Shown here: positions 1,858 through 20,702 of the stretch, in pieces
Numbering within the stretch: position 1 is the first letter of the stretch
Layout: the number at the start of each line of letters is the position of its first letter
NCBI GenBank assembly: GCA_964576705.1
Contig: CAZNVI010000002.1
Span: 1-58,885 of the forward strand
From: an uncultured Gammaproteobacteria bacterium
GTDB taxonomy: Bacteria > Patescibacteriota > Microgenomatia > Levybacterales > UBA12049
Length of the DNA: 58,885 nt
Direction of reading: 5' to 3'
The notes under the pieces: generated by a model
Database searches by the model: none
The model's input: the letters and a program-made list of their open reading frames with translations, nothing else
Told to the model about the DNA's origin: nothing
Position numbers and translations under genes: made by a program

Positions 1858-3002
1858 AAAAAATAGTTTTTAGGTTATATGTCCTTACCGTATTTATTTT
1901 TAGTGTTTTTTCATATGTTTTTATAGATAAAAACTTAATTTACCTAAATGTTTTTTATACTGGCTTATATTCGGTATATAGGAATTATGTCGGTACTATT
2001 TATTTGACTTTATTGGTAATGCTTCATATTTTATATCTGGTACTTATTAGATTATATCTAAAAAAAATAATAGGGTATAAAGAAATTATCTTTTTAATTA
2101 CGATAACTATTATTTTACTTTTTTTTAGTTATCCGACAATTCTCTCTTACGATATTTTTAATTATATAGCCACAGCTAAAGTCGCGTTTCTCTATGGTGA
2201 AAATCCGTATGTCGTTATGCCAATAGAATTTATAAATGATCCGATTTTATTATTTATGCACGCGGCAAATAAGACTGCTCTTTATGGACCTGTATGGATT
2301 GGGCTTACTTTATTTCCGCACATTTTAGGCTTTGGCAATTTTTTACTTACTTTATTCAGTTTCAAATTAGTCATAGCAGGTTTCTATATTTTATCCAATA
2401 TATTGATTTACAAATTAGTTAAAAACTGGTTTTCTGTAATTATATTTGCTCTTCATCCTCTCGTAATAATTGAAACTTTAATAAGTGGCCATAATGACAT
2501 AGTCATGATCGGTTTAGTACTGATTGCATATCTTTTACTTAAAAAGAAGAGAATTTTATTTGCTGCGATTTTTTTATTTCTTTCGATAGGGATTAAATTC
2601 GCAACAATTTTTTTGTTACCGGTTTTTATATACGTATCAATAAATACTGTCAGAAATAAGATTGTTAATTGGTCTAAAGTTTATTATTTGTCTTCATTGG
2701 CGATGTTTATTGTATTTCTTATATCGCCATTTCGTGAAGAGATGTATCCCTGGTATTCTATATGGTTTTTTGTTTTTATTTGTCTTTCGATACCAAGTAA
2801 AAACTTGCTTGTGGTAACGTCGTTATTTCTGTTTGGGTTAATGCTTAGATATATACCTTTTTTATTTTTTGGTATTTATAGTCCTTTAGTTATACAACTT
2901 AGGACTGCAATTATGTTTTTGCCGTTATTGATTTATTTTTTAATACTTATGTTAAATAAAATTTTAAAGATAAGCTACAGTTTCATTATGGGTAAGAGTT
3001 GA
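1854..3002 (+). CDS. Polytopic membrane protein, GT-C-like (GT87/DUF2029-like)
   Basis: About 10 hydrophobic helices. Acidic first loop SYDIFNY and ISGHNDIVMIGL motif as in PimE/DUF2029-type enzymes. ATGA overlap with the upstream gene. Confidence 0.5.
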   Translation: MKKIVFRLYVLTVFIFSVFSYVFIDKNLIYLNVFYTGLYSVYRNYVGTIYLTLLVMLHILYLVLIRLYLKKIIGYKEIIFLITITIILLFFSYPTILSYDIFNYIATAKVAFLYGENPYVVMPIEFINDPILLFMHAANKTALYGPVWIGLTLFPHILGFGNFLLTLFSFKLVIAGFYILSNILIYKLVKNWFSVIIFALHPLVIIETLISGHNDIVMIGLVLIAYLLLKKKRILFAAIFLFLSIGIKFATIFLLPVFIYVSINTVRNKIVNWSKVYYLSSLAMFIVFLISPFREEMYPWYSIWFFVFICLSIPSKNLLVVTSLFLFGLMLRYIPFLFFGIYSPLVIQLRTAIMFLPLLIYFLILMLNKILKISYSFIMGKS

Positions 3003-4667: not shown

Positions 4668-5719
4668 GGATAGCCTTAAATATTTCACCTTTATTCAGCG
4701 GACATAAAGTTCGCGGAGCAGGTTTTTATGTCGAAAGATTAAAAGAAGCGTATCTTAAATATTATTCTAAACATGAGTATGTTTTTTTTACCCGGATATC
4801 CGAACTAAATGGTAAGTTTGACGTGGTTCACTATCCGTTTTTCGATCCGTTTTTTTTAACTGCCCCTGTTTTTAAAAGATCACCCTTGGTAGTAACAATT
4901 CACGATTTAATTCCGTTAATATTTCCCCAACATTTTCCAGCAGGAATCAAAGGTAAGATAAAATGGCAAATTCAAAAAATACTATTATCCCGAACGGATG
5001 CAGTTATAACTGATTCTATTTCATCCAAGAAAGATATAAGCAGAGTTGCAGATATACACGAAGATAAAACTCATGTAATATACCTGTCTGCGGGCGAGGA
5101 GTTCAGGCAGCTTAAAAATTCAAAAAACAAATCTGATGAAATCAGAAGAAAATACAATTTGCCAAGTAAATTTGTGTTGTATGTAGGTGATGCCACTTGG
5201 AATAAAAACTTGGTTAATTTAATTAAGGCTATAGAAAAAACAGATATCCAGTTAGTTATGGTAGGAAAAGCCTTAGTAGATAAGAATATCGATGGTCATA
5301 ATATATGGAATAAAGATCTTATCGAGTCAAAGAATTTGATTCATAACAAAATTCAGTTTATAACACTAGGATTTCTGCCCACTGAAGATTTAGTCGCAAT
5401 TTATAATTGCGCCACTGTTGCGATCTTGCCTTCTTTTTATGAAGGATTCGGTTTACCGATTGTTGAAGCGATGAAATCCGGCTGTCCGGTAATCGCTTCC
5501 GATAGAGGGTCAATTCCGGAAGTAGCAGGTGACGCAGTTTTATATATAGATCCATATAATATAAATAATATTTCTGAGACGATAAACCGGTTATGTAAAG
5601 ACGCAGAACTTCGCCGAAGGTTAATTAGAAAAGGATTTATTCAAGCGGATAAGTTTTCATGGAAAAAAACAGCTGAAAATACGATAGCTTTATATGAAAA
5701 AATTAAAAAGAATTACTAA
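4664..5719 (+). CDS. Family-4 (GT-B) glycosyltransferase
   Basis: EX7E region YEGFGLPIVEAMKSGCPVIASDRGSIPEVAGD. N-domain MRIALNISPL...VTIHDLIP. ATGA overlap with the upstream gene. Confidence 0.8.
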   Translation: MRIALNISPLFSGHKVRGAGFYVERLKEAYLKYYSKHEYVFFTRISELNGKFDVVHYPFFDPFFLTAPVFKRSPLVVTIHDLIPLIFPQHFPAGIKGKIKWQIQKILLSRTDAVITDSISSKKDISRVADIHEDKTHVIYLSAGEEFRQLKNSKNKSDEIRRKYNLPSKFVLYVGDATWNKNLVNLIKAIEKTDIQLVMVGKALVDKNIDGHNIWNKDLIESKNLIHNKIQFITLGFLPTEDLVAIYNCATVAILPSFYEGFGLPIVEAMKSGCPVIASDRGSIPEVAGDAVLYIDPYNINNISETINRLCKDAELRRRLIRKGFIQADKFSWKKTAENTIALYEKIKKNY

Positions 5720-6956
5720 TAATCCTCTAATTTCAGGAAGCATTATCATTTTCAGCGGTACATTTTTAGCTAATGTCTTTAACGCTGTTTTTAATTTTTT
5801 TGCCGTTGGTCACCTAAGTGTAGTAGATTACGGAATTGTTGCAAGCTTAATTTCATTAATTTCACTTCCAGCTTATGCTGCAAATTCTATCATCCCGGCC
5901 GTGGTGCAATTCGGCGGTAAATACTTTGCCTCAAATAATTTGGCCGCCGTAGTGAGGTTGTATAGAAAAGCCGGGATATTCGTTTTATTCATAGCAGTCG
6001 TCATATTTTTATTCTTTTTAGTTTTTATTCAGCAAATCAGCGAATTTCTAAAAATTTATGATTTGACATTATTGCTTTTAACAAGTGTTATTATCTTTGT
6101 TGGCTTTTTCACCTATTTAAATTTAGGTATGCTTCAGGCTAAATTGGCATTCGTTTCTATTTCGGCTTTTAGTCTTATAGGTTCATTAACTAAGTTAACA
6201 TTAGGTGCGCTATTTATAATTTTGGCTTTTGAAGTTCGGGGTGTAATGTCTGCTATTTTATTATCAACTGTAATTCCACTATTTTTATCATTAATTCCTC
6301 TTAAGTTTATTTTTAGTAAACACATAAATAAAACCGGGACAGAAACTTCTACGAAAGAATTGATATATTACGGTACTCCATCTGCTATCGGTTTGATATC
6401 ACTTACCTCTCTCATAACTTCTGATATTCTTTTAGTTAAGCATTTTTTTAACGGGGATATTGCAGGATTGTACGGTGGATTATCATTAGCAGGTAGGGTG
6501 ATTTTTTATTTTACTGCCCCTATTGTTACTGTAATGTTTCCGCTTATTGTGAGAAAGAAAAACAATAACGAAAATTATAATACTACCTTTGCGCTTGCCG
6601 TGTTTTTAGTTCTAATTGCATCCCTTTTTATTACAGTAATTTATATGTTAATCCCGAATTTTGTTATTTTAACTTTATTAAATAAAAAAGAATATCTGTC
6701 TATCTCAAGTCAATTAGTGTTATTCGCTATAAATATTACACTTTATTCAGTAATATCGGTATTCGTGAATTTCTATTTATCTATTAAGGCGACCAGGATT
6801 TTCATTCCTGTATCTATTGCAGCAATAATTCAAATAGTTCTTATTTGTTATTTTCATAATTCTTTTTATGAAATAATCTACATAACTATAATAGTTCTAA
6901 TTGTGTTACTAATAGCTCTTTTGTTATACTATCCCTATGCGACAAAGAAAAAATGA
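5694..6956 (+). CDS. Wzx-like oligosaccharide flippase (MOP superfamily)
   Basis: 420 aa with about 12 TM helices and a basic N-terminus (MKKLKRITNNPLISGS). Typical size and topology for a polysaccharide-locus flippase, and sits in a glycan-locus context. Confidence 0.65.
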   Translation: MKKLKRITNNPLISGSIIIFSGTFLANVFNAVFNFFAVGHLSVVDYGIVASLISLISLPAYAANSIIPAVVQFGGKYFASNNLAAVVRLYRKAGIFVLFIAVVIFLFFLVFIQQISEFLKIYDLTLLLLTSVIIFVGFFTYLNLGMLQAKLAFVSISAFSLIGSLTKLTLGALFIILAFEVRGVMSAILLSTVIPLFLSLIPLKFIFSKHINKTGTETSTKELIYYGTPSAIGLISLTSLITSDILLVKHFFNGDIAGLYGGLSLAGRVIFYFTAPIVTVMFPLIVRKKNNNENYNTTFALAVFLVLIASLFITVIYMLIPNFVILTLLNKKEYLSISSQLVLFAINITLYSVISVFVNFYLSIKATRIFIPVSIAAIIQIVLICYFHNSFYEIIYITIIVLIVLLIALLLYYPYATKKK

Positions 6957-7755
6957 CTTTGGCGTTAATAAATTAATCTCCATAGTAATTCCCGCATACA
7001 ATCAGCAAAAAACAATTACACGCGATATAAAGAATATTGAGAAAATATTAAAACTCTTAGGCTATAAGTATGAAGTTATCATAGTAAATGACGGATCAAC
7101 AGATCACACATTAAAAAAAGCTAAAGTATTCCGTTCAGATAAAGTAAAAGTTTTGGGCTATTCTATAAACCAAGGAAAAGGACATGCTATACGCTTGGGC
7201 ATGCTTAAAGCCAAAGGAGATATAATCGGTTTTATAGATTCAGGGATGGATATTAACCCAAATGGCTTTGCGATGTTATTGAATCATATGGAGTGGTATA
7301 ACGCTGATGTTATAGTCGGTTCTAAATTACATCCTGTCTCTAAAGTGAAGTATCCATATCCCCGAAGAATCTTATCATGGGGATATAGATGGTTAACGAA
7401 AGTACTGTTCGGTTTTAAGATTCGAGATACCCAAGTAGGATTGAAATTTTTCAAACGTAAAGTGGTGAATGCCGTTATTCCAAGATTATTAGTTAAAAAA
7501 TATGCTTTTGATATTGAAATTCTTGCTGTTTCTCATAGATTAGGATATAAAAGAATATTTGAAGCTCCAGTCGAAATAAATTTTAAAACCAATACCATAA
7601 ATTCAGCCAATTTATGGAAAACAATTTTTAACATGCTTTGGGATACTTTCGCTGTCTTCTATCGCTTAAATATTCGTAATCACTATACTAAAAAATTTAA
7701 AAGAAGGAATATTTCAAGAAGAAGTTTTTTACCATTCACGTTTAATAATATATAA
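6937..7755 (+). CDS. Family-2 glycosyltransferase, polyprenyl-phosphate hexose synthase-like (DPM1/Alg5 type)
   Basis: ISIVIPAYNQ...VIIVNDGSTDHT...NQGKGHAIRLGMLKAKGDIIGFIDSGMD...FDIEILA. Confidence 0.65.
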   Translation: MRQRKNDFGVNKLISIVIPAYNQQKTITRDIKNIEKILKLLGYKYEVIIVNDGSTDHTLKKAKVFRSDKVKVLGYSINQGKGHAIRLGMLKAKGDIIGFIDSGMDINPNGFAMLLNHMEWYNADVIVGSKLHPVSKVKYPYPRRILSWGYRWLTKVLFGFKIRDTQVGLKFFKRKVVNAVIPRLLVKKYAFDIEILAVSHRLGYKRIFEAPVEINFKTNTINSANLWKTIFNMLWDTFAVFYRLNIRNHYTKKFKRRNISRRSFLPFTFNNI

Positions 7756-7778: not shown

Positions 7779-8807
7779 ATGCATATATTAATTACCGGAG
7801 GAGCAGGATTTATAGGCTCAAATGCTTCGAAATACTACCTTGAACGCGGAAATTCAGTAACGATAATAGATAATTTTTCACGAAAAAGCGGATACCATAA
7901 CACTCAATGGTTAAGCGGGTTATTCAAAAAAAAATATAAGATTATAAAAGCCGATGTGCGTTCAGATGTTTCAATCCTAAAAAAGGAAGTAAATAGAGCT
8001 GATTTTATAATTCATTTGGCTGGACAAGTCGCTGTAACAAATTCAATCATAAATCCCAGAGAAGATTTTGAAAGCAATACTGTCGGAACTTTTAATATGC
8101 TTGAGGCAGTTAGAATTTCAAAAAACAATCCTGCTTTAATTTATAGCTCTACGAATAAGGTTTATGGTGATCTAAATAAAATAAAAATAGAAGAAAGACC
8201 AACTAGAGTAGCATTTAAAAATATGCCTTATGGTGTATCAGAAGAGCAAAATTTAGACTTTCATTCTCCTTACGGTTGCAGCAAAGGTGCTGCAGATCAG
8301 TATGTCCGGGATTACGCTAGAGTTTATGGATTGCGAACTGTAGTTTTCCGGCAGTCATGTATTTATGGGCCAAGGCAATTCGGGATTGAAGATCAAGGGT
8401 GGCTTGCGTGGTTTATGATAGCTATATCTCAAAATAAACCAATCACAATTTACGGCACCGGGAAACAGGTGCGGGATGTATTATATATTGATGATTTAAT
8501 TGCAGCATATGATAAAGCGTTTGAGCATATTAAAATGACATCAGGTCAAGTTTATAACATAGGAGGTGGTCGGACGCGAGCACTATCTGTTTGGTACGAT
8601 TTGAAGCCGATCTTAGAAAGATTATTTAAAAAAGATATAAATATTCTATTTGAAAAACAGAGAATCGGAGATCAGTCAATTTATATATCAGATATAAGGA
8701 AAGCTAAGTCAGAATTTAACTGGGAACCTAGAATTTCAAATAATGAAGGAATTAATAACTTGTATAATTGGATTATCTCTAATAAATCTTACTTTAAAGG
8801 ATTGTAA
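7779..8807 (+). CDS. NDP-sugar epimerase, CDP-paratose 2-epimerase-like SDR
   Basis: MHILITGGAGFIGSN, SSTNKVYGDL, LDFHSPYGCSKGAADQY, VVFRQSCIYGPRQFGIEDQGWLAWF and GKQVRDVLYIDD line up closely with the Salmonella RfbE/Tyv-type epimerase as I remember it. Confidence 0.7.
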   Translation: MHILITGGAGFIGSNASKYYLERGNSVTIIDNFSRKSGYHNTQWLSGLFKKKYKIIKADVRSDVSILKKEVNRADFIIHLAGQVAVTNSIINPREDFESNTVGTFNMLEAVRISKNNPALIYSSTNKVYGDLNKIKIEERPTRVAFKNMPYGVSEEQNLDFHSPYGCSKGAADQYVRDYARVYGLRTVVFRQSCIYGPRQFGIEDQGWLAWFMIAISQNKPITIYGTGKQVRDVLYIDDLIAAYDKAFEHIKMTSGQVYNIGGGRTRALSVWYDLKPILERLFKKDINILFEKQRIGDQSIYISDIRKAKSEFNWEPRISNNEGINNLYNWIISNKSYFKGL

Positions 8808-8936: not shown

Positions 8937-10058
8937 ATGAATATCCTCATTCTAAATTGGCGTGATGTAAAAAATCCCTTATCTGGTGGTGCTGAAATTC
9001 TTACCCATGAATTAGCGAAGCAGTGGATAAAAGCCGGACATAGCGTTACGCTTTTTACGTCTATTTTTCCGAATGCTAATAAAAAAGAAATAATTGATAA
9101 AGTTACAGTTATTCGCGAAGGACATCCTGACTTACGAACTCTGTTTAGTTCCGTACAGTTTAAAGCATATAGATATTATAAAAAAAATATAGGTAAATTT
9201 GACGTCATCATAGATGAAGTTCATGGTGTTCCGTTTTTTACACCATTATATGTCAAGGAGCCGGTCATATCTCTAATATGCGAGGTGGCTAATGATATTT
9301 GGGATGTTATGTTTTCTTTCCCTTGGAGCTTTATCGGTAAAAATCTGGAGAAAGCCTTTTTCCGGCTATATACAAAGAATTCAGTTTTTACAATTTCTAA
9401 TTCTACTAAATCTGATCTTATTTCTTATGGTTTTAAATCGGATAAGATATTCGTATTGCCTATGGGAATTACCAGATTCGCGGTCAATAATATTAAAAAA
9501 GAGGCGAAATCAACAATAATTTTTGTCGCACGTTTGAACAAGATGAAGGGTATCGAGGATGCGATCATAGCGGTTGCATTATTGAAAAGAAAAATAGAAA
9601 AACTTTCTTTTTGGATAATAGGTCGGGGTGAAGAGGGGTACGTAGATAAATTAAAAAAACTAACTAAAAATAATGATTTATCTGAGAACGTTAAATTTTT
9701 CGGATTTGTATCGCAAAGAAAAAAATTTGAGCTAATGGCAAGATCACATTTGATCGTAGTGCCTTCTGTGCGTGAAGGCTTCGGAATGATTGTTCCTGAG
9801 GCGGGGTCTGTAGGCACGCCTGCTGTGGTATATGACTCACATGGATTACGCGATACTATAGATAATAATTTTAACGGAATAATAGTTGATAGAAGTCCAC
9901 AGGCACTTGCAGATGGACTGCATAAAATTATAAAAGGCAAAAGGTTATACGAAAAAATTTGTAAAAATGCGAAAGAAGAAAGTAAGAAATATCGGTGGGA
10001 AAGAACGGGAAAAGAATCAATTAAAATATTAAAGAAAGCGCTTTCTTTTAAAAATTGA
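8937..10058 (+). CDS. Family-4 glycosyltransferase
   Basis: MNILILNWRD...GGAEILTHELAK N-domain. EX7E region REGFGMIVPEAGSVGTPAVVYDSHGLRDTI. Confidence 0.8.
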   Translation: MNILILNWRDVKNPLSGGAEILTHELAKQWIKAGHSVTLFTSIFPNANKKEIIDKVTVIREGHPDLRTLFSSVQFKAYRYYKKNIGKFDVIIDEVHGVPFFTPLYVKEPVISLICEVANDIWDVMFSFPWSFIGKNLEKAFFRLYTKNSVFTISNSTKSDLISYGFKSDKIFVLPMGITRFAVNNIKKEAKSTIIFVARLNKMKGIEDAIIAVALLKRKIEKLSFWIIGRGEEGYVDKLKKLTKNNDLSENVKFFGFVSQRKKFELMARSHLIVVPSVREGFGMIVPEAGSVGTPAVVYDSHGLRDTIDNNFNGIIVDRSPQALADGLHKIIKGKRLYEKICKNAKEESKKYRWERTGKESIKILKKALSFKN

Positions 10059-10084: not shown

Positions 10085-11968
10085 ATGAAGTCAGGAATGA
10101 AGTTTATCCATTTCACACAGCCTCTTTTCGGTACGGAAGAAAAAAAGGAAGTACTTAATACTCTTGATTCAGGATGGATAACTCTTGGTCCTAAGACGAA
10201 GCAATTTGAGGATAATTTTGCGGAGTATGTAGGCGTGAAGCACGCGGTTGCTGTTAGCTCTAACACAGCTGGTATGCATTTAGCTCTTATAGCGTTAGGA
10301 ATTAAACCGGGCGATGAAGTTATAACAACACCGTTTACTTTTGTCGCTACAGTTAATGTAATAGTGCATGTAGGTGCCGTACCGATACTTGTCGATGTTG
10401 ATCCTAAAACATTTAATATTGACCCGACAAAAATTGAAGAAAAAATTACAAAGCGTACAAAAGCAATTATGCCTGTTCATTATGGTGGACTCGCGTGTGA
10501 TATGGATGAGGTAATTAAAATCGCAAAAAAACATGACTTACTTATTATCGAAGACGCTGCACATGCAAGTGGAGCAAGTTATAAAAATAAAAGGATAGGA
10601 GCTCATGGTGATGTAGCTATATTTTCTTTTCATCCTGTAAAAAATATTTCAACCGGAGATGGGGGAATGGTAACTACAGATAACGCACATCTTGCTAATA
10701 AAATTTCTACATTACGTCTTCACGGAATGAGTAAAGAAGCATGGAAGCGTCATAGTGCAAGCGGATCCTGGAAATACGACGTTGAATTACCGGGTTTTAA
10801 ATATAACATGACAGATATTTCGGCTTCCCTTGGTATTCACCAGCTTAAAAAACTTGGCGGGTTTATCAAGAAGAGAAAAGAATATGCCGATTTTTTTAAT
10901 AAATCTTTTGAAAATATTCCGGAGATCTCAACTCCCTATGTGCCGATTAATGAAGAACATATCTATAGTTTATATACGATTAAGATTGATGTAGACAAGT
11001 TAAAGATCGACAGAGATGAAATAGTTGAGCTTTTGAAAGAAGCAAATATAGGCGCTACAGTCTATTTTATTCCAGTGCATCATTTTACTCTTTACAAAAA
11101 CAGTTTCGGTTTTTCTGAAGAAGATTTTCCGGTAACTGAAAAAATATTTAAATCAATTTTATCGTTACCTTTATACCCGAGGATGAGTATTGAAGATGTC
11201 AAATATGTTGCAGATACATTGCGCAGAATTATAGAAAATAATAGAAAGGAATATGTATGGTCTATAGATAATTTTGATAGTGAAATATTCGGGTTTAAAA
11301 CGGCAAAAATTAAACATCTTTATTCAAACGGTGATGCCAAAAAGCTTCAGAAAACGATTAATACATTAAAAAAAGATATGGTTGAAAACGAGGTAGAATA
11401 CGCGATATATAGAGCGCCTGCGGATAATTATTCACTTATCCAAGTTCTTGAAAACAACAATTTCACTATTGTTGATGGGCTGGTTAGTTTGTCAAACGAT
11501 GAGATGGATATTGTCCATAACATAAATTCCAAAATTCGAAAGGCTAAGATAACAGATTTAAAGCAACTAAAGAATATAGCATCAACTTCGTTTGAGCGAA
11601 CTAGAATATATAACGATGCGATATTGGATAAGAAAAAGGCCGGTAAAATGTATGCAAGATGGATTGAGAATTCTTTAACACAAAAAGTAGCAGACGAGGT
11701 GTTTGTTTGGGAAGAAAACGGAGAAATTTTGGGTTTTATTACATTGCAAAAAAGTGGTCATATCCCGCTTATTGCAGTAATGCACAAGGCGCGCGGGAAA
11801 GGAATTGCGAAAGAATTAATAAAAGCTGTTTTATATCAATGTAAAGAATGGGGCATCACAAGGTCAGAAATAGAAACACAGATGGCGAATATTCCAGCAC
11901 TTCGTGCATACCAATCCTGTGGATTTAAAATTATAGATTCGTCTTTAACTTTTAGATGGATGAAATAG
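10085..11968 (+). CDS. Bifunctional NDP-4-keto-6-deoxyhexose aminotransferase (DegT/WecE-like) fused to GNAT N-acetyltransferase (WecD-like)
   Basis: Residues 1-~385 carry DegT/DnrJ/EryC1 motifs (GWITLGPKTKQFEDNFAEY, IIEDAAHA, SFHPVKNISTGDGGMV with the PLP lysine). Residues ~395-627 match E. coli WecD as recalled (YARWIENSLTQ vs YAQWIENAVRG; ETQMANIPALRAYQSCGFKIIDSSLTFRWMK vs [29 protein letters not shown]). ATG 10097 is an alternative start. Confidence 0.8.
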   Translation: MKSGMKFIHFTQPLFGTEEKKEVLNTLDSGWITLGPKTKQFEDNFAEYVGVKHAVAVSSNTAGMHLALIALGIKPGDEVITTPFTFVATVNVIVHVGAVPILVDVDPKTFNIDPTKIEEKITKRTKAIMPVHYGGLACDMDEVIKIAKKHDLLIIEDAAHASGASYKNKRIGAHGDVAIFSFHPVKNISTGDGGMVTTDNAHLANKISTLRLHGMSKEAWKRHSASGSWKYDVELPGFKYNMTDISASLGIHQLKKLGGFIKKRKEYADFFNKSFENIPEISTPYVPINEEHIYSLYTIKIDVDKLKIDRDEIVELLKEANIGATVYFIPVHHFTLYKNSFGFSEEDFPVTEKIFKSILSLPLYPRMSIEDVKYVADTLRRIIENNRKEYVWSIDNFDSEIFGFKTAKIKHLYSNGDAKKLQKTINTLKKDMVENEVEYAIYRAPADNYSLIQVLENNNFTIVDGLVSLSNDEMDIVHNINSKIRKAKITDLKQLKNIASTSFERTRIYNDAILDKKKAGKMYARWIENSLTQKVADEVFVWEENGEILGFITLQKSGHIPLIAVMHKARGKGIAKELIKAVLYQCKEWGITRSEIETQMANIPALRAYQSCGFKIIDSSLTFRWMK

Positions 11969-11969: not shown

Positions 11970-13466
11970 TTAATTGAAAGACACCAGTTTTACGTCTCCA
12001 GATTCGAAAACCGTTTTTTTATTTATAAGTTTCAACTCTTTTTTGGTAGCAAAACTTTCTTTAATTAGTGCATGAGTTAGCTTATATTTTTTGACGAGTG
12101 TTTTTATGGGAATTTTTAAAACTGGATATACTCCTTGAATTCTCATGAGGCCTGGGTTGTCTGCGTTTACGAAAACTGCAGCTTTTGTGTGATAAACCGT
12201 CATTGTGGTGTTTTGGTGAGGAATGCAAATAATCCTTAAAGAATGTTTTTGCTTATTTATATATCTAAATACCTTAACCAGGTCTGTTGTTATGCTTCTG
12301 TTGCGGTCTTTGATCACTCCTTTTAATTGGATAAAAAGTATGAGTGAAAGGTTGACCAATAGAATAATTGCGAGTATGAGTACAGTCCAAATTTGATAAG
12401 GTGTTTTAAGAAGTTCGAAAAACAAATATGCAGAAAGAATCGCTGACGGAACTGTCGCCATCTCCATATATCTTTGTCCCTCACCTATAGGCATTAGAGA
12501 TTTTACTTTTAGTACCAATACTCCGAAGAAGTAGAAAAAGATAATCCATGCTGCGAACATTTGAAGTAGCAGAGAAGTATTCAGCCAGCCTAAATAGTTT
12601 GCGATAAGTATTAAAAACCCGCTTAGGGCCCATGGGTTAAGCCCGAACACAGCTATAGGCGAAAAAGCTGATAAAAATTTGTAAATATTACCTACCCAAT
12701 CTGTCTGCGAAGTTTTCTTTATATTACCCCTAATCTGGTGTGCAAACCGGTAATCAAGATTATTAATCCAGAAGTAAATGTTATAGAGATGGCCTTTAAG
12801 AACACGTATATAATAACCTCTGGTTATAAGTATAGCTAATCCAAATCCTATAAGAAAACTCTGCATAAAAACTGCTGTGTTTAGATAAAATGTAAAAAAT
12901 ATTGTAAGAAATAAAAAAGATTGGATTGCGAAGCGGTGGGTTAAAAATAAAAATGTTACAAAAAATATTCCAACTAGAAAAAACCATATACTCCCATTTA
13001 GAATAAACAGAAGCAAAGGAAGTGTAGCCAAGCTAAAATTTAAGTAACCTAAAGAACGGGGCGTTAGATAGCTGTTCTCGATTGCAATCATAGGGGTTAA
13101 CATATACATAATTTGAGCCAGTAACGCAAAGTATATGTTTCCTGAAAGATAAAATCCGACGAAATATATTAACACAACCTGTATTGAATCGAAAAAAGGG
13201 GCGATGAATCCTTGTAGTATAAGCAATTGTTTTTTAGGAATATACGATAATAATAGTGGAAAAACTGGAGGGTAATCGAAATACCCTCCTATGATAAATT
13301 GGTCAGCTAACTTATGATTCGGGACTTTATGATTATTTTTTCGGAGATGATCAGTCTCAATAAGACGGGTCCAAACGTCAACTCCAAATAATTTATTAAT
13401 AAATCTAGGATATGATTGAAGAAAGAAATTTATCAGAGGAATTATTAGTGGAAATAAGTAGCCCAT
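11970..13466 (-). CDS. Uncharacterised polytopic membrane protein (GT-C-like?), paralogue A
   Basis: 498 aa and more than 10 TM helices. Shares blocks with the facing gene: SYPRFINKLFGVDVWT, YFDYPPVFPLLL, THRFAIQSF, YYIRVLKGHLYNIYFW..YRFAHQIRG, GEGQRYMEMATVPSA, CIPHQNTTMTVYHT..VFVNAD. It is the only minus-strand gene in the glycan locus. Confidence 0.7.
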   Translation of the reverse strand: MGYLFPLIIPLINFFLQSYPRFINKLFGVDVWTRLIETDHLRKNNHKVPNHKLADQFIIGGYFDYPPVFPLLLSYIPKKQLLILQGFIAPFFDSIQVVLIYFVGFYLSGNIYFALLAQIMYMLTPMIAIENSYLTPRSLGYLNFSLATLPLLLFILNGSIWFFLVGIFFVTFLFLTHRFAIQSFLFLTIFFTFYLNTAVFMQSFLIGFGLAILITRGYYIRVLKGHLYNIYFWINNLDYRFAHQIRGNIKKTSQTDWVGNIYKFLSAFSPIAVFGLNPWALSGFLILIANYLGWLNTSLLLQMFAAWIIFFYFFGVLVLKVKSLMPIGEGQRYMEMATVPSAILSAYLFFELLKTPYQIWTVLILAIILLVNLSLILFIQLKGVIKDRNRSITTDLVKVFRYINKQKHSLRIICIPHQNTTMTVYHTKAAVFVNADNPGLMRIQGVYPVLKIPIKTLVKKYKLTHALIKESFATKKELKLINKKTVFESGDVKLVSFN

Positions 13467-13473
13467 GGTCGAG

Positions 13474-13502
13474 ATTATAGAACGATTTTATTGTCTATGC
13501 AA
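13474..13502 (-). promoter_or_regulatory. Putative promoter for the minus-strand paralogue (TTGCAT-17 nt-TATAAT), -10 box only 7 nt from the ATG
   Basis: On the minus strand, TTGCAT is the complement of 13497-13502 and TATAAT the complement of 13474-13479. The start codon is the complement of 13464-13466. Confidence 0.4.
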
Positions 13503-13546
13503 GGTGTTTGTTATCAAGTATAATCATTATTAAGTTTCTTTCTTCT

Positions 13547-15025
13547 ATGTATTTTTTTGGATTATTGTTACCGGTAATTGCTTTTTTATTTGAATCATAT
13601 CCCAGGATTTTAAATCGTAAATTTGGCGTAGATGTATGGACGCATCTTTTATATCTAAAAGAGTTTCACCGCCAAAAAGGTATCCCCAAGCGCATTAAAA
13701 AAGGCTTTTTAGTCCCGGGTGTTTATGACTATCCGCCGATTTTTATAATGATTTTATCTAAATTTCCGTTCAAGTGGGTTGAGAAGTACGAATTTTTTTT
13801 CTCTCCTTTTTTTGACGCATTACATCTGATACTTATTTACTTTATTGTATATCAGATGACAGGAAGTGTTCCTGTGTCTTTAGTAACACAATTATTATAT
13901 ATATTAACACCTATTATAGTTTTAGAAAATTCAAGCGCTACTCCTAGGTCTTTAGGGTATTTACTGTTTACATGTACCTTTATGTTAATTTTTGCTTTCA
14001 TTCAATTACAATCACTATGGTTTATCTTGCTGGCTATATTATTAGGTTCATTTGTCTTTCTTTCGCATAGATTTACAGCTCAGGGTTTTTTATTTTATTC
14101 ATTATTTTTTTCAATTTATGACAGAAACTTGATTTATTTTTTAGTTTTTGTGCTCTCTTTTATAATCGCAGTTATTATATCAAAAGGTTTTTATATCACC
14201 GTTTTGAAGGGACATTTAGGTAATTTGAAATTTTGGTATAAAAATATAAAATATAGATACGCACATCAGATTAAAGGTACTTATAAAGAACATAAAACTA
14301 AAGACGTAGTGTTTAAGTTTTATAATCAATTCTTAAAATTTCCACCTTTTGTTTTGACCATAACTAATCCTTGGACTCTTCCGGTTTTTTTCATGTTATT
14401 TTTTTCTTATCCGACTAACGTTCTTTATCAGCACCTACTTTGGTGGGTAATATTTTCTTATATATTGGCACTTGTTACGACATGTATACCTTCTCTACGT
14501 TTCCTAGGAGAAGGACAGCGCTATCTTGAGCTTTCAGCTTTCCCCACGGCGTTTATTGGCACAATGCAATTATTTATATTTGTCGACAATTCTAAATTTA
14601 TTTATGTGCTTAATTTGTATATTTTAACGGGAGTCGCGGCTTTATTTACAATTTTAGTAATTCAAAGAAAAGCGATAGTAAAAGAAGAAGTGAGAACTAT
14701 AACTAGTGGGATGCAAGAGATGTTTGATTATTTACGGATGCTTAAGAAAAAACCAAGATTGTTGTGTATTCCTCATCAAATTACTACGAATACTATTTAT
14801 CATACGGATTGTCCGGTTTTCGTGAATGCTGATTATGCAACGATAGATAAAATTTCCGATGTTTACCCTTATTTCAAAAAACCTATCAGAAGTATTATGA
14901 TGAGGCATAAATTGGATATGATATTGCTTAATCAAAATTATGCAAGAATTGCCGACTTAAGACTTAAAAAATTTAAGATTATTAAAAAGTTTCGGGAGTA
15001 TGTTTTAATTAAGCCAATCTTATGA
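13547..15025 (+). CDS. Uncharacterised polytopic membrane protein (GT-C-like?), paralogue B
   Basis: Start moved from TTG 13508 to ATG 13547, so the N-terminus (MYFFGLLLPVIAFLFESYPRILNRKFGVDVWT) aligns with paralogue A (MGYLFPLIIPLINFFLQSYPRFINKLFGVDVWT). A TATAAT box lies at 13519-13524. Same conserved blocks as paralogue A. Confidence 0.7.
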   Translation: MYFFGLLLPVIAFLFESYPRILNRKFGVDVWTHLLYLKEFHRQKGIPKRIKKGFLVPGVYDYPPIFIMILSKFPFKWVEKYEFFFSPFFDALHLILIYFIVYQMTGSVPVSLVTQLLYILTPIIVLENSSATPRSLGYLLFTCTFMLIFAFIQLQSLWFILLAILLGSFVFLSHRFTAQGFLFYSLFFSIYDRNLIYFLVFVLSFIIAVIISKGFYITVLKGHLGNLKFWYKNIKYRYAHQIKGTYKEHKTKDVVFKFYNQFLKFPPFVLTITNPWTLPVFFMLFFSYPTNVLYQHLLWWVIFSYILALVTTCIPSLRFLGEGQRYLELSAFPTAFIGTMQLFIFVDNSKFIYVLNLYILTGVAALFTILVIQRKAIVKEEVRTITSGMQEMFDYLRMLKKKPRLLCIPHQITTNTIYHTDCPVFVNADYATIDKISDVYPYFKKPIRSIMMRHKLDMILLNQNYARIADLRLKKFKIIKKFREYVLIKPIL

Positions 15026-16377
15026 AAAAAAATAAAAAGCTTAAAAGACATACCAGAAGTATTTTAAATTTAAGGAATTTTTTTATTATTATTTCTTTAA
15101 TTTTCATTATTTTTTTCGGATTTTTATTACGCAGACATGATTTCACTACTAATCCCAGACATGGGGCTACATTTGATGAATTCGCATGGACTTGGCTTGG
15201 TATAAATTTAATCCAGAACAGAATGCCTGAATCATGGTCTCCTCATCCCCAGTATAAAGTAAGAAAACATCTTACATATCAAGGAGCATCTTTTTGGCTT
15301 GTAAAACCATACCTTGAACATCCCCCGTTATTCGGTTTAGTAGCAGGAGTTTTCGCGCTTTCAAATGATACAAAAAACATGTATGACGTCACTCTTAGTA
15401 AAATACGTCCACTTGCATTAATTATGGGTATTGCATCTGTAGTTTTAATGTATTTATTTATTTCTGAAACATATGGTCGTTTAACAGGTTTATTGTCCGC
15501 TGCTTTATACGCAACGATTCCATCAATTGTAGTCGGTTCGCGACTTGTCCAAAACGAGAATTTTTTGATCCCTTGTTGGCTTTTAGCTTTATACTTTATT
15601 ACTAAATACCTAAAGTCCGACAAAAAAAGATTTAGAAATCTTGCGTCAATTTTAGCCGGTATCCTTTCACTTGCCAAAGTTCCATGGCTTTGTGTTGGGT
15701 TATCTTTGGCTTTAATTTTGTCTTATAGACAAAAATTTAAGGATGCGTTTGTGGTCATCGGAGTTGTAGTAGGGATTTTTATTATTTACTTTGTATACGG
15801 ATTTTATTTAGACAAGTCATTATTTATAGATCTAATGCGATTGCAGACAGCTCGTTATGATATTACTTATCAAGGCTTATTATCAATTTTTACCAAACCA
15901 ATCCTGATTGATTGGTATTATATCGACGGTTGGATATTATTTGCATGGTTTACCGTATTTACACTCCTTAGTACAATAAAAAAGAATTTTTTAATTATTA
16001 TACCGTTTATTGTTTATTTAACTATGTATGCTTTTGCTATACCTGATGAGCCGGGTCATGGATGGTACAGATATCCGTTTAGCCCATTTCTTATCGGCTC
16101 TTTAGCTATATTTTTAGTAGATGAATTTAAAAACATTACTTTTCGTTATATTTTTTTCCTTTATATAGTCGGTTTTTCGCTTTTGCAAAATGGCGTAATG
16201 GAAATATTAGGTTTCTCTTTTTTGGTATATCGAACTTTTATATTTTTTTCTGCAGTTCCGGTAATTTTTTTTCTATGGTTTGATAAGTATTCTCGTTATA
16301 GTCGTTACTTTATTTTATTGACATTAATTATATTTACTTTTTTTAATGTCCTTGCAATTTTTAATGTAAGAACATAA
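15022..16377 (+). CDS. GT-C glycosyltransferase, ArnT/PMT-like (GT39/83-like)
   Basis: First-loop motif HGATFDEFAWTWLGINL, then YLEHPPLFGLVAG. About 11 TM helices. ATGA overlap with the upstream gene. Confidence 0.65.
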   Translation: MKKNKKLKRHTRSILNLRNFFIIISLIFIIFFGFLLRRHDFTTNPRHGATFDEFAWTWLGINLIQNRMPESWSPHPQYKVRKHLTYQGASFWLVKPYLEHPPLFGLVAGVFALSNDTKNMYDVTLSKIRPLALIMGIASVVLMYLFISETYGRLTGLLSAALYATIPSIVVGSRLVQNENFLIPCWLLALYFITKYLKSDKKRFRNLASILAGILSLAKVPWLCVGLSLALILSYRQKFKDAFVVIGVVVGIFIIYFVYGFYLDKSLFIDLMRLQTARYDITYQGLLSIFTKPILIDWYYIDGWILFAWFTVFTLLSTIKKNFLIIIPFIVYLTMYAFAIPDEPGHGWYRYPFSPFLIGSLAIFLVDEFKNITFRYIFFLYIVGFSLLQNGVMEILGFSFLVYRTFIFFSAVPVIFFLWFDKYSRYSRYFILLTLIIFTFFNVLAIFNVRT

Positions 16378-18514: not shown

Positions 18515-19428
18515 AAGTATATATTACAGGAGGGACAGGTTTATTAGGCAGCAGCTTATTGCGTACTGTTCCTAAAAAGTTTACCCTTTTCTCAAACTAT
18601 CACATAAATAAGCTCATCCCAGATATACCGATAGCTGACTTTTCTTATTTAGATATTACCAATAAAAAGCAAGTAGAAACTGTTTTTTCAAAAATAAGAC
18701 CGCACTATATTATCCATACAGCAGCAAAATCTAGTCCGGATTTTTGTGAAGATAATCCCCAGGAGGCATACAGAGTAAATATTGAAGGGACGAGAAATGT
18801 CCTTTTTTTCGGTAATAAATTCGGATCTAAAGTAATAATTATGTCGACTAATCAGGTTTTTTCAGGTATTAATCCACCATATACTGAAGAATCGGAACGT
18901 GACCCCGTAAATGTATACGGGAAAACGAAGGTGCAGAATGAAGATGAGATTCTTACTGGAAAATATAAAGGTACTGTTATTAGGCTCATGACGTTATATG
19001 GATGGGGTAATCCTCATGGCCAAAAGAATTCAGCTATGTGGGTTATAGACATGTTATCGAAAAATCAAAAAATAAAAGTTGTGGACGATATTTATAATAA
19101 TTTTTTATGGGTGGAAGACGCAAGTAATGCAATATGGAAAATGATTTTGACCGATAAAGAGCTTAAGTTAATTCAAATAGCCGGAGAAGAAACGACAAAC
19201 AGGTATCTTTTAGCTAAAATGATTGCAAATGTTTTTAAATTGGATGATACATTAATCACCCCCGTTAAAAAGAGTTATTTTAAGGATGAAGCCCCAAGAC
19301 CTCTTAATACAGTGTATGACATCGGGTGTCTCAAAAAAAAACTTAAGTTTTACCCGCTCATGCTTAAAGAAGGAATTATAGAGATGAAAAGAGCATCCAA
19401 ATCTGTAAAGTGGAAAAAAATTGCATGA
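18511..19428 (+). CDS. RmlD-like NAD(P)-dependent sugar-nucleotide reductase
   Basis: MKVYITGGTGLLGSSL, IIHTAAKSSPDFCEDNPQEAYRVNIEGTRNV, STNQVFSG, VNVYGKTKVQNE. This matches the RmlD substrate-binding-domain layout. Confidence 0.65.
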   Translation: MKVYITGGTGLLGSSLLRTVPKKFTLFSNYHINKLIPDIPIADFSYLDITNKKQVETVFSKIRPHYIIHTAAKSSPDFCEDNPQEAYRVNIEGTRNVLFFGNKFGSKVIIMSTNQVFSGINPPYTEESERDPVNVYGKTKVQNEDEILTGKYKGTVIRLMTLYGWGNPHGQKNSAMWVIDMLSKNQKIKVVDDIYNNFLWVEDASNAIWKMILTDKELKLIQIAGEETTNRYLLAKMIANVFKLDDTLITPVKKSYFKDEAPRPLNTVYDIGCLKKKLKFYPLMLKEGIIEMKRASKSVKWKKIA

Positions 19429-20702
19429 AAAAACTTCTATTTCCACTTCTTATTTTAATTTTTATAGCGTTTTTACTTCATCATTATTTTCGAGTATTCG
19501 ATTTGCCTGAAATCATTACACCTTCAAAATCACTTTCGTACGAGCCTGCAATTTATGAGAGTGGTAATTTAGTTGCTGATGAAGTCGGGTATGTAGCAAA
19601 TGTATTTTCCTGGGGTTATAACAGACATATTTGTTATGATAATGAATTTAAAAATTGGTGGATATTTTATTATGGTGACTTAAGTAATGATCCGGATAAG
19701 CCTAATAGGAATATTCAGTATAGATATAGTAAAAATGATGGAAATACGTGGAGTGGGTCGCGACAGTTTAAGAGTAACGTAGTTGTATCTGCTGATTTTA
19801 CTATATATTGTGAAGCAGAAAATATAAGCATCGCTTATGGCGATATACATCAAAAAAATGTTTATTGGCAAAAGGGCAAGATGCAAGTCGATGATGTAGA
19901 ATGGTATTCCAAAAGTGTTCCGATTAAATCGGATGTTGGATATGCCAGTGTCGCTCCATCTATTGTCTATTATAATAATTTACCGGTCTTAGCTGTAAGA
20001 GATCAAAGTGAGGAAAGTAAAAAAAGCGGTGAAAAGAGAACATTTGTTGCAATTGCTAAAGATGAACATGGAAATTCGTGGGAAAAGAATGTAAAGATTC
20101 ATAGCAGTATAATACGAACTCCGTTTGATAAATACGCATCGCCATCATTAGAAATAGTTAATGGAGAATTATTTGCAATTATCAATACTGGATATGATAT
20201 GCGTATTGTAAATTATCTATTAAATAATGAATGGGGAGAGGATAGATTGATAAGTGGCTTTAAGTATAGCGGAGCCAATTTAGATTGGACCACCGTAACA
20301 GACTCATCAGGCACGTTACATATTTTTTACCCTGAAAAAGACACATCGTTTGCCAGACATGCGACGTTTGATGGATCAATCTGGAATTTTGAAACTATTA
20401 CTGACTATCCAATCAGTTCTAATCGCCATTTATCAGGGGCAATTGATGATAATGACACACTGTATTTTATAGGAAATGAACTCGCTCTTTACTATAAAAC
20501 TAATAATATTTGGCATGTAGACAAAAGACTTGTTTCCAAGCTTGGATTGGGAATGAGGTTTATTACTGCTTCGCAGAAGTTAGTCGATAACAAATTAGGT
20601 ATAGCTTGGATTGAAGGTGATGAGTTTACACCAGTTATCCGCTTCTTATGCTTACAGAAAATTGAAAAGAGAAATACTATTTCTTTTAAGAAATGTCAAT
20701 AA
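19425..20702 (+). CDS. Membrane-anchored extracytoplasmic protein with Asp-box (BNR/sialidase-like propeller?)
   Basis: Start moved to ATG 19425 (ATGA overlap). N-terminal TM KLLFPLLILIFIAFLL. YSKNDGNTWSGS is a near-canonical Asp-box (SxDxGxTW), and AKDEHGNSWEK is a degenerate one. Beta-rich composition. Confidence 0.45.
   Translation: MKKLLFPLLILIFIAFLLHHYFRVFDLPEIITPSKSLSYEPAIYESGNLVADEVGYVANVFSWGYNRHICYDNEFKNWWIFYYGDLSNDPDKPNRNIQYRYSKNDGNTWSGSRQFKSNVVVSADFTIYCEAENISIAYGDIHQKNVYWQKGKMQVDDVEWYSKSVPIKSDVGYASVAPSIVYYNNLPVLAVRDQSEESKKSGEKRTFVAIAKDEHGNSWEKNVKIHSSIIRTPFDKYASPSLEIVNGELFAIINTGYDMRIVNYLLNNEWGEDRLISGFKYSGANLDWTTVTDSSGTLHIFYPEKDTSFARHATFDGSIWNFETITDYPISSNRHLSGAIDDNDTLYFIGNELALYYKTNNIWHVDKRLVSKLGLGMRFITASQKLVDNKLGIAWIEGDEFTPVIRFLCLQKIEKRNTISFKKCQ

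Follow-up and report, generated by a model that had tools for sequence, protein, structure and literature searches.

Two genes for membrane proteins of about 500 residues lie head to head in the window, by which we mean the whole stretch of 58,885 nucleotides analyzed here. We refer to them as paralogues A and B, and to their family as famX (Table 1). The preliminary description of this DNA had seen in them a pair of paralogues forming the only strand switch of the locus, and this view holds: both open reading frames are present, and A is the sole real minus-strand gene of the window, the one other minus-strand frame of at least 150 residues being an antisense frame inside a GT4 gene. The stop codon of A lies 1 bp from that of the DegT–GNAT fusion gene, and the stop codon of B overlaps the ATG of the gene that follows it (ATGA). 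The frame of B extends upstream to an alternative TTG at 13508, but its alignment with the N-terminus of A starts at the ATG.

Table 1. Features of the A/B locus and related genes in the window (positions are those of the window).
Feature	Position	Strand	Length	Remarks
Wzx-type flippase (MOP superfamily)	5694-6956	plus		Pfam Polysacc_synt_3 and Polysacc_synt; first gene of the conserved operon
GT2a, small soluble GT2	6937-7755	plus		resembles polyprenyl-phosphate sugar synthases; no TM helix
NDP-hexose 4,6-dehydratase-like SDR	7779-8807	plus		Pfam Epimerase, GDP_Man_Dehyd; NCBIfam dTDP-glucose 4,6-dehydratase, 1e-54
GT4b, glycosyltransferase of the conserved operon	8937-10058	plus		Pfam Glycos_transf_1, Glyco_transf_4
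DegT sugar aminotransferase fused to WecD-like GNAT N-acetyltransferase	10085-11968	plus		Pfam DegT_DnrJ_EryC1 (1e-133), Acetyltransf_1
Paralogue A	11970-13466	minus	498 aa	famX; unclassified family with predicted GT-C(A) fold
A, C-terminal alpha/beta domain (residues 386-498)	11973-12311	minus		site of the conserved motifs CIPHQxTT and VNAD
A, GEGQRY	12468-12485			
A, long first loop (residues 24-87)	13206-13397			
A, candidate catalytic Asp30	13377-13379			
Divergent spacer between A and B	13467-13546		80 bp	one perfect TATAAT per strand
TATAAT, for A	13474-13479	minus		
TATAAT, for B	13519-13524	plus		
Paralogue B	13547-15025	plus	492 aa	famX; length counted from the ATG
B, candidate catalytic Asp29	13631-13633			
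B, C-terminal domain	14681-15022			
Ordinary PMT_2-type GT-C	15022-16377	plus		Pfam PMT_2, 3.5e-15; translationally coupled to B
PglC-like PGT	46044-46709			

The two proteins are 38% identical (61% positives) over 478 residues with 6 gaps in a pairwise BLASTP alignment (E 1e-118), a comparison that the preliminary description had proposed, and every sequence block it had quoted as common to both is located in A and in B: GVDVW at residues 28 and 27, DYPP at 64 and 61, HRF at 177 and 174, GEGQRY at 328 and 321, CIPHQ at 414 and 407, and VFVNAD at 431 and 424, respectively. The identity at the first, second, and third codon positions is 0.50, 0.68, and 0.34, with 0.29 expected by chance at the third, and it reaches only 0.44 at the third positions of codons for identical residues. 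Third positions thus differ for the most part, as had been noticed, and their near-chance identity, with synonymous sites saturated, implies that the duplication is old. In a phylogenetic tree, A and B each belong to a monophyletic orthologue group of their own. The two clades have 67 conserved positions in common, among them all candidate catalytic residues, and B retains all 67. These results establish A and B as anciently diverged paralogues kept under selection.

The spacer had been regarded as a divergent promoter region of about 80 bp shared by the two genes. The length is correct, and both TATAAT elements can be read directly from the sequence, but a consensus scan for promoters and terminators around the pair gave no more sites than in shuffled sequence, and we only infer a promoter function. 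No tRNA and no Rfam family was found in the window.

The DegT–GNAT fusion matches the NCBIfam models for PseC, ArnB (390 bits for the DegT part), WecE, and WecD, and its product should be an NDP-4-acetamido-4,6-dideoxyhexose. In the PDB, the sequence closest to GT2a is that of the Dol-P-Man synthase 5mlz (5e-14), with GtrB and ArnC next. Its full-length NCBIfam matches are to PpgS and AglJ, both weak, and to a Dol-P-hexose transferase, whereas other GT2 models cover the N-terminal half only. The PMT_2-type GT-C downstream of B also adjoins famX in 7 other loci and, unlike famX, has a K/R-rich N-tail.

Fold and conserved residues of famX

The preliminary description could not place A and B in any family, and neither could profile searches: no Pfam or NCBIfam model matched the two proteins at E ≤ 1, and among 98 diverse famX members Pfam returned only 3 weak PMT_2 matches (best 1.7e-4) and none to STT3, Wzy_C, or EpsG. 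A PDB sequence-profile search with famX gave two chance matches, to a TetR regulator and a HIT protein, and no oligosaccharyltransferase (OST). A homologue search with a diverse alignment retrieved mainly close relatives, with no informative names, and the clusters of ten distant members were likewise nameless. We found no published description of famX in the literature on CPR bacteria with GT-C or OST, or among CAZy families GT137-GT141.

The AlphaFold (AF2) model of A (pLDDT 88.6, pTM 0.89) contains 11 TM helices and was compared with the PDB using Foldseek. All 22 matches with E ≤ 1e-3 are GT-C(A) enzymes (TMq ≤ 0.62). STT3/PglB/AglB match best (E 3e-7 to 6e-4, TMq 0.53–0.61 for the whole protein), and DPY19, ArnT, ALG9, and AftA are also among the matches. 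ArnT (E 6e-4) and Pmt4 (E 2e-3) are found further down, and the top 50 matches include no structure of WaaL, RodA, FtsW, or Wzy. The earlier suggestion of a GT-C-like enzyme is therefore borne out, in that the model shows a GT-C(A) fold for famX and a single invariant Asp follows TM1. This residue, Asp30 of the GVDVW block, is the only invariant column in an alignment of 115 diverse sequences of 20–50% identity, and equally in the set of 98. It belongs to a first loop modeled with two short helices. At least 90% conservation is seen for Y65, P66, P67, R137, H177, Q182, G328, and Y333, and all conserved polar residues of famX map to loops that share one face in the model. The C-terminal part, which had been taken for a small soluble module, does form an alpha/beta domain (residues ~386-498). 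When modeled alone (115 aa, pLDDT 84.3), it best matches the C-terminal globular domain of AglB-S2 (3vu0, TMq 0.63), marginally at E 7e-3, followed by the C-domains of STT3 (TMq 0.45–0.49) and ArnT (0.42–0.45).

The catalytic subunits of OSTs (GT66) are thus the best structural match to the whole of A and, marginally, the first for its C-domain. The order of parts is also common to both, with TM1 followed by a long first loop that bears an acidic residue, then a core of several TM helices, and a C-terminal alpha/beta domain. By its place in the sequence order strand, motif, helix, CIPHQxTT would correspond to the WWDYG of OSTs such as PglB. Overall, famX appears as a reduced version of the OST catalytic-subunit architecture. 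The differences are nevertheless considerable, as famX has no detectable sequence similarity to OSTs, one Asp where OSTs have DxD, no WWDYG and no DK/MI motif (a regular-expression search for WWD and D.D found neither in A or B), 11 TM helices where OSTs have 13, a C-domain of only ~115 residues, and an atypical charge distribution. STT3, PglB, and AglB do head the Foldseek ranking of the full-length model, as AglB-S2 and STT3 head that of the C-domain. The missing WWD and DxD, the 11 TM helices, and the short C-domain, together with the lack of a match to Pfam STT3 (PF02516) at E ≤ 1 and of any PDB sequence-profile match to an OST, make it hardly credible, and already disfavored, that A and B are orthodox N-oligosaccharyltransferases orthologous to PglB/AglB.

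PIG-U, which reuses the GT-C fold in the GPI transamidase, is also found among the fold matches (9ub7_B, E 1.2e-2), and famX might by analogy be a transporter or a lipid-binding scaffold instead of an enzyme. This is very unlikely, because an invariant first-loop Asp combined with a cluster of Arg, His, and Glu on one face is the pattern of an active GT-C, and MFS and MurJ transporters reach TM scores of at most 0.13 against the A model.

A membership of famX in the EpsG/GT122 group of Wzy proteins (clan GT-C3) was also considered and, by comparison with one GT122 member, rejected. This member, E. coli O104 Wzy (PMC10920833, Suppl. Data 2), matches Pfam EpsG at 1e-43, and hhalign assigned a probability of only 0.7% to its comparison with the famX profile. 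The absence of OST hallmark motifs, the marginal C-domain match (E 7e-3), and the absence from the top 50 fold matches of Wzy and WaaL, whose characterized representatives fall in other classes of GT-C, count against oligosaccharide transfer at the outer face.

Gene neighborhoods across the family

The family comprises 1276 clusters at 50% identity, and the GC content of its loci ranges from 0.30 to 0.72. Two traits that the preliminary description had raised for the family did not generalize: famX is not restricted to CPR bacteria, and the divergent pairing is not a family feature, since all 13 other loci with both A and B are convergent and most famX loci carry A alone. Among these loci, only the window has the two genes head to head.

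Related loci were collected with an alignment of closer famX members. In the CPR clade, an operon of the order Wzx-GT2a-GT4b-DegT-GNAT ends at or converges on famX, with DegT/GNAT genes no more than 6 kb from famX in 35 of 41 related loci and GT4b in 22 of the 41. For distant members (22–38% identity), we took a census of 92 neighbors in 18 loci. The most frequent families are GT4, methyltransferases, Polysacc_synt (11 of the 92 neighbors), radical SAM, and AsnB, and PGT, GT2, and Wzy_C are absent from the 25 most frequent. Of 17 distant loci, 9 have Wzx as the gene immediately upstream of famX in the same orientation and 4 more have it a few genes away, and Wzx and famX are usually the sole polytopic proteins there. 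Two candidates were discarded along the way. A 487-residue protein without Pfam match in a Daviesbacteria locus (L003), considered as a B paralogue, is unrelated by BLASTP, and an apparent 989-residue fusion (L097) is an artefact of a spurious upstream open frame in DNA of 72% GC.

The polymerase/ligase class can be recognized by its place beside Wzx where no rival candidate is present, and this is the gene context of famX, which occupies the slot usual for a Wzy polymerase next to Wzx, GT4, and N-acyl-amino-sugar genes. Pairs of wzx and wzy are the hallmark of Wzx/Wzy clusters, and the ECA cluster brings together WecE, WecD, WzxE, and WzyE (PMC10920833, PMC11127046). The CPR famX operon mirrors the WecD/WecE/WzxE/WzyE block, and the strong conservation of the A clade (50–73% identity) resembles that of ECA-Pol. 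The likeness to Wzy/WzyE and WaaL (GT119-GT135; EpsG, Wzy_C, the latter PF04932 of GT-C(B)) is one of gene position, beside wzx among GT4 and sugar-modification genes, but not of sequence, famX having no Wzy_C or EpsG match.

Donor, acceptor, and side of the membrane

We tentatively favor the reading that famX is a new GT-C(A) family which transfers a Wzx-flipped, lipid-linked glycan at the outer face. The GT2 and GT4 enzymes of the operon would assemble, with polyprenyl phosphate as carrier, a glycan unit that includes the N-acetylated 4-amino-4,6-dideoxyhexose from DegT–GNAT. Wzx would flip this unit, and famX would then use it as the donor for transfer en bloc. Asp30 would activate the acceptor, and the conserved Arg and His residues would hold the carrier phosphate(s). 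The acceptor could be another unit, as for a Wzy-like polymerase, or the final acceptor, as for a ligase or an OST. Where both paralogues are present, A and B probably divide polymerase and ligase roles or make two different linkages. OSTs and famX would then share, besides their layout, a tie to a flippase-dependent lipid-linked glycan pathway with 4-amino-4,6-dideoxy sugars. The genes of the locus that bear on a polyprenyl-phosphate-linked donor are those for Wzx, the DPMS-like GT2, and the PglC-like PGT. The donor is a point against outer-face oligosaccharide transfer: GT66 stands alone among the known GT-C(A) families in using a lipid-PP-oligosaccharide, and the rest use lipid-P-monosaccharides (PMC10920833, Table 1).

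The latter donors are central to an alternative, possible but doubtful, in which famX belongs to a three-component system like those of ArnT, Gtr, or GT136. GT2a would load the N-acetylated 4-amino-4,6-dideoxyhexose on polyprenyl monophosphate, the Wzx-like protein would flip it, and A and B would each transfer this one sugar, on the outer side of the membrane, to a glycan already present at the surface. The nearest solved relative of GT2a, its matches to GtrB and ArnC, and its full-length matches to polyprenyl-P-sugar synthases all agree with this, and the DPMS/PpgS-like GT2 of the CPR operon fits a single-sugar system equally well. The partnership of aminotransferase, N-acyltransferase, DPMS-like GT2, flippase, and GT-C mirrors the Arn pathway, down to the ArnB match of DegT, and flippases of the MOP/MATE type do serve three-component systems (PMC11127046). 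ArnT, PMT_2, Gtr, and GT136 proteins also have the GT-C(A) fold and similar first-loop motifs in common with famX: the FGVDVWTRL and DYPP segments can be aligned to FDEFAWTWL and EHPP in the neighboring PMT_2-type GT-C. However, A and B have no match to PMT_2 (PF13231) or PMT (PF02366), the profiles of the ArnT and PMT families GT83/GT39, hhalign gives probabilities of 10–35% for famX against PMT_2 orthologues, the association with GT2 is confined to the CPR clade while Wzx and GT4 dominate at the 18 distant loci, GT4b is left without a role, and the fold ranking puts OSTs above ArnT/PMT for both the whole protein and the C-domain.

Transfer at the outer face, in either form, would be excluded if the conserved face, with GVDVW and GEGQRY, were cytoplasmic, and this is the orientation predicted by the charge distribution and by one natural fusion. 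Family-wide, the famX N-tail has ~5 residues and 0.14 K/R, with 90% of members lacking any K/R there. The flank after TM1 carries 2.8 K/R, and that after the last TM helix 2.6, compared to 0.4 before it. The loops of the conserved face carry 8.8, 1.2, 1.0, 9.5, and 2.6 K/R, and those of the other face ~2.4 in total. In the ordinary GT-C proteins of the window, the N-tails and the inner loops are rich in K/R. In the fusion (P0250, locus L049), a PglF-linker-like Rossmann domain (3nkl, E 2.4e-3) and an extra TM helix precede the usual start of famX; the helix would be needed only if the famX N-terminus were outside, which would place the conserved face in the cytoplasm. With the conserved face and the C-domain on that side, famX would act before Wzx, for instance as the otherwise missing transferase that initiates on polyprenyl phosphate or as a membrane-embedded elongase for the lipid-linked unit, and no PGT gene is found near famX in the conserved operon or at the distant loci.

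We consider this inverted orientation unlikely. The active sites of characterized GT-C enzymes are all known to lie outside the cytoplasm. OSTs are matched by the TM core as well as by the C-domain, and this implies that the protein is homologous to them throughout. Of the K/R residues in the short loops of the conserved face, three (R137, R178, and R332) are functional invariants, and the positive-inside rule applies only in part to long loops. Moreover, the fusion is known from a single metagenomic contig, and PGT genes often lie elsewhere in the genome, this window having one itself (Table 1). A more specific version, which we hold to be quite unlikely, would make famX the first cytoplasm-facing GT-C and would add a third structural class to the initiating polyprenyl-phosphate glycosyl(phospho)transferases, its C-domain binding the nucleotide sugar; such an initiating role would explain the lack of a PGT in the conserved operon and near distant members.

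A recognizable polymerase or ligase is often missing from Wzx-dependent glycan clusters. In a CAZy survey, only 150 of 363 known polymerases could be placed in families (PMC10920833). If famX does fill the polymerase/ligase slot, it would represent a structurally new way of dealing with flipped lipid-linked glycans. The family could also provide glycoengineering with a compact scaffold of the OST type. Should the topology signals prove true instead, work outside the cytoplasm would no longer be a general rule for GT-C enzymes. For CPR/Microgenomates, the favored outer-face reading, if true, would mean a conserved, ECA-like envelope glycan pathway that is open to testing.

The divergent gene pair and its orthologues

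A preliminary description made from the sequence alone had singled out two head-to-head genes, here called A and B, as diverged paralogues encoding GT-C-like membrane proteins of unplaced family, and this interpretation is supported overall by our analysis. Both open reading frames (ORFs) are real and lie where they had been located (see table); the reading frame of B extends back to a TTG at 13508, but the N-termini of the two proteins align from the ATG. All six conserved blocks quoted as shared are found in both proteins, which are homologous over 478 residues with 38% identity, 61% positives and six gaps (BLASTP, E 1e-118). Their identity per codon position is 0.50/0.68/0.34, compared to a random third-position expectation of 0.29, and at codons for identical residues the third positions match in only 44% of cases. 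The synonymous sites are therefore saturated and the duplication is old, as had been proposed. When ORFs of 150 aa or longer are considered, no real gene other than A lies on the minus strand of the 58.9 kb.

Each strand of the 80-bp spacer between the genes has a single perfect TATAAT, that for A at 13474-13479 and that for B at 13519-13524. A consensus promoter scan of the spacer region was not above chance, so the shared divergent promoter is a putative one. The stop codons of A and of the convergent DegT-GNAT gene are 1 bp apart, and the stop codon of B overlaps the ATG of the next gene (PMT_2).

We examined 41 loci of species-representative genomes, with named sources in Levybacteria, Daviesbacteria, Roizmanbacteria and 'Patescibacteria group'. 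HMM and BLAST comparisons and a neighbour-joining tree together resolve two monophyletic orthologue groups, A-type and B-type, the Daviesbacteria singletons nesting within the A clade. The idea that the genes are always paired and divergent does not hold: the B-type gene is present in only 14 of the 41 loci, and all 13 loci carrying both genes have them in convergent orientation. The head-to-head layout in the window is therefore a local rearrangement. In seven of the convergent pairs the 3' ends abut or overlap; the other six pairs are spaced by 0.8-3.4 kb. The overlap amounts to 4 to 33 bp in six pairs (L006, L018, L020, L022, L023 and L024), and in L035 the genes are separated by a 2-bp gap; the packing in these loci is very tight, with no space left for terminators.

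The A and B clades have 67 conserved positions in common, and 15 clade-specific positions set them apart, including several in the first loop (e.g., R34 to H and E37 to Y). This pattern suggests that A and B are probably both active, with different specificity. In L017, L019, L021, L029, L044 and L045, the A-type gene is preceded on its own strand by a second SDR dehydratase/epimerase gene and a second DegT gene (product 36-41% identical to the window's DegT), so A may draw on a sugar supply separate from B's.

Fold and conservation of the family

No Pfam or NCBIfam model matches A or B at E ≤ 1, in keeping with their unplaced status, and no solved structure was found by sequence with a 41-sequence profile of the family, which we call famX. 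An AlphaFold2 model of A, based on the 41-sequence alignment (pLDDT 88.6, pTM 0.89), has eleven TM helices, a 64-residue loop with short helices after TM1, a partly disordered loop at residues 215-268 and, from residue ~386, a compact alpha/beta domain that matches the small C-terminal module anticipated earlier. The GT-C-like character is borne out by Foldseek, since all 22 PDB matches to the model at E ≤ 1e-3 are GT-C(A) glycosyltransferases: STT3 from the yeast and human oligosaccharyltransferase (OST; E 3e-7 to 8e-6, TMq 0.54-0.61), PglB (E 1.5e-5 to 6e-5, TMq 0.53-0.56), AglB (E 1.4e-4 to 5.6e-4, TMq 0.56-0.58) and DPY19 (E 2e-4 to 1e-3, TMq 0.58-0.62), as well as ArnT and ALG9. AftA, Pmt4, AftD and ALG12 come next (E 1e-3 to 9e-3). 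Transporters reach a TM of at most 0.13, and the top 50 matches include no WaaL, RodA or Wzy structure. When the C-terminal 116 residues of A were modelled in isolation (pLDDT 84.3), the first fold match was the C-terminal globular domain of the archaeal OST AglB-S2 (3vu0; TMq 0.63, E 7e-3), followed by STT3 C-domains (0.45-0.49) and ArnT (0.42-0.45), a ranking that agrees with the whole-protein search, though at marginal E-values. The OST hallmarks WWD and DxD are absent from both A and B. The two proteins fall into a large GT-C(A) family that is unclassified and whose architecture is a reduced, OST-like one.

Searched against 1.84 billion representative proteins, the famX profile retrieves 1276 clusters at E ≤ 1e-3, of which 788 remain at E ≤ 1e-10 and 265 at E ≤ 1e-30; almost every match is full-length and ~500 aa. 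The famX loci have GC contents between 0.30 and 0.72. The family is therefore not confined to CPR, a possibility that the preliminary description had raised. In alignments of 115 and 98 diverse members with 20-50% identity, Asp30, two residues into the loop after TM1, is the sole column invariant in both, while L35, P49, Y65, P66, P67, R137, H177, Q182, H226, G328, Y333, P340, P416 and P448 are at least 90% conserved. Conservation is one-sided, and the pattern is the one typical of active GT-C enzymes. Weak Pfam PMT_2 matches occur in 3 of the 98 diverse members, and when the profiles of famX and of the adjacent PMT_2 protein's orthologues were compared, a weak match (E 3e-3) paired FGVDVWTRL with FDEFAWTWL and FDYPPVF with LEHPPLF.

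Membrane orientation

If famX were oriented as every known GT-C enzyme, its cytoplasmic side would be almost devoid of positive charge. The N-tail (mean 4.8 residues) has 0.14 K/R and the five inner loops 0.2-0.6 each, compared to 8.8, 1.2, 1.0, 9.5 and 2.6 on the conserved face; the flanks have 2.8 K/R after TM1 and 2.6 after the last TM helix. The window's other GT-C proteins, unlike famX, have K/R-rich N-tails and inner loops. On the question of whether GVDVW and GEGQRY face outward, the charge counts thus predict a cytoplasmic conserved face, although long loops are partly exempt from the positive-inside rule. An inverted topology would also explain P0250, a 647-aa famX member (L049, 4001-5944) in which the famX start is preceded by an additional TM helix and a Rossmann-like domain akin to the linker domain of PglF/WbpM (3nkl, E 2.4e-3), since this natural fusion makes sense only with the famX N-terminus outside. 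However, it is known from a single contig, both famX domains look OST-homologous, and three of the outer-loop charges are functional invariants. We consider an inverted, cytoplasm-facing topology unlikely, though its probability is not negligible. The P0250 ORF begins right after the stop codon of the upstream gene and overlaps a downstream formyltransferase gene.

Genomic context and proposed function

In the CPR clade, B is the last gene of a recurrent operon, Wzx-GT2a-GT4b-DegT-GNAT, on which A converges; in Daviesbacteria, A follows the operon on the same strand. In 35 of the 41 loci, famX has DegT/GNAT genes no more than 6 kb away. The window's DegT-GNAT fusion matches PseC, ArnB and WecE and, separately, WecD, whereas DegT and GNAT are separate ORFs (~385 and 240-320 aa) in the related loci examined. 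The product of DegT-GNAT together with a 4,6-dehydratase should be an NDP-4-acetamido-4,6-dideoxyhexose.

Overall, the window is a ~48-kb glycan locus with many GT4 and GT2 genes. It encodes eight or more membrane proteins of GT-C-like type (MptA-like, PTPS_related/YfhO, two PMT_2, two AftD/YfhO-like, A and B), which by analogy suggests extensive extracytoplasmic glycan assembly, like mycobacterial arabinan/mannan synthesis. The PglC-like and DUF4012 genes mark the far end of this supercluster, 30 kb from the famX pair. The 764-, 1131-, 1068- and 430-aa proteins have no Pfam match; those of 764 and 1131 aa recur, along with a methyltransferase and GT2b, as a block adjoining A in many related loci. 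An ORF holding only an N-terminal GT4 domain precedes a complete GT4 gene by 5 bp, and the two may represent a split or truncated duplicate. The stretch after the glycan locus is the start of the dcw cell-wall cluster. No tRNA or Rfam family was found in the whole window. Many TPA MAG records with clear Microgenomates-type loci (L005-L043) are titled 'uncultured Gammaproteobacteria bacterium', and 'Candidatus Woesearchaeota archaeon' is the title of a 3-kb contig (L042) that carries a fragment with 60% identity to A; these titles are probably placeholder labels or the result of mis-binning.

Features of the window
Feature	Position	Strand	Remarks
GT-C-like protein	1854-3002
GT-C-like protein	3006-4667
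DegT-GNAT	10085-11968		DegT aminotransferase fused to WecD-like GNAT acetyltransferase, 627 aa
A	11970-13466	minus	498 aa ORF
B	13547-15025	plus	492 aa counted from ATG
GT-C-like protein	15022-16377
430-aa protein	19410-20702
764-aa protein	21757-24051
GT-C-like protein	24715-28110		1131 aa
GT-C-like protein	28453-30366
GT4 N-terminal domain	32427-32966		179 aa, Glyco_transf_4
Complete GT4	32972-34093
1068-aa protein	35581-38787
GT-C-like protein	38784-40235
Small PglC-like monotopic phosphoglycosyl transferase	46044-46709		Bac_transf, 3e-61
PglC-like and DUF4012 genes together	46044-48688		DUF4012 protein (652 aa) comes second
Start of dcw cluster	48692-58826		recO, class II aminoacyl-tRNA synthetase, mraW, PBP transpeptidase, two Mur ligases

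As to the function of famX, the main rival reading is a three-component system of the ArnT/Gtr/GT136 kind that transfers a single sugar (PMC11127046). It is supported by GT2a, which is DPMS-like: it has no TM helix, its closest solved relatives are Dol-P-Man synthase, GtrB and ArnC, and its full-length NCBIfam matches are polyprenyl-P-sugar synthases. Moreover, most GT-C(A) families use lipid-P-monosaccharide donors (PMC10920833, Table 1). This reading is weakened by distant famX loci, where GT2 is absent from the 25 most common neighbour families. Three such loci, reached via relatives of the member P0184, are clusters with Wzx, DegT, formyltransferase, GT4, asparagine synthase and radical SAM genes, and a metagenome scan added 70 famX loci. 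In 9 of 17 representative loci, a ~500-aa protein with 12-14 TM helices is encoded immediately upstream of famX on the same strand, and in 4 further ones it lies a few genes away; the two are usually the sole polytopic proteins. When 92 proteins encoded next to famX were assigned to Pfam families, GT4/GT1 came first with 15, ahead of methyltransferases (14), Polysacc_synt (11), radical SAM (10) and asparagine synthase (7); the 25 commonest families do not include PGT, GT2 or Wzy_C. This is the classical wzx-wzy arrangement.

In the Wzy enzymes of CAZy clan GT-C3 (GT122-124), the N-terminal loop is long and Asp, Arg and His residues are conserved (PMC10920833). These traits recall those of famX, so membership of famX in GT122 was tested with the O104 Wzy of E. 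coli 2011C-3493, classed as GT122 (PMC10920833, Supplementary Data 2), as the representative. This protein belongs to Pfam EpsG (E 1e-43), which matches neither A nor B nor any of the 98 diverse members, and hhalign gives the famX profile a probability of 0.7% against it; famX therefore lies outside GT122, the one GT-C3 family compared.

Given the wzx-wzy-like context of the distant loci, we favour famX as an en bloc transferase of a Wzx-flipped glycan unit. It would take the polyprenyl-phosphate-linked unit after flipping by Wzx and transfer it en bloc, as a polymerase or a ligase-/OST-like transferase. Our data show the fold, the invariant Asp, the one-sided conservation and the synteny, while the donor, the acceptor and the division of labour between A and B are what we infer here. 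The closest functional analogy is the ECA block WecD/WecE/WzxE/WzyE, and the A/B family occupies the Wzy/ligase position in Wzx-dependent clusters.
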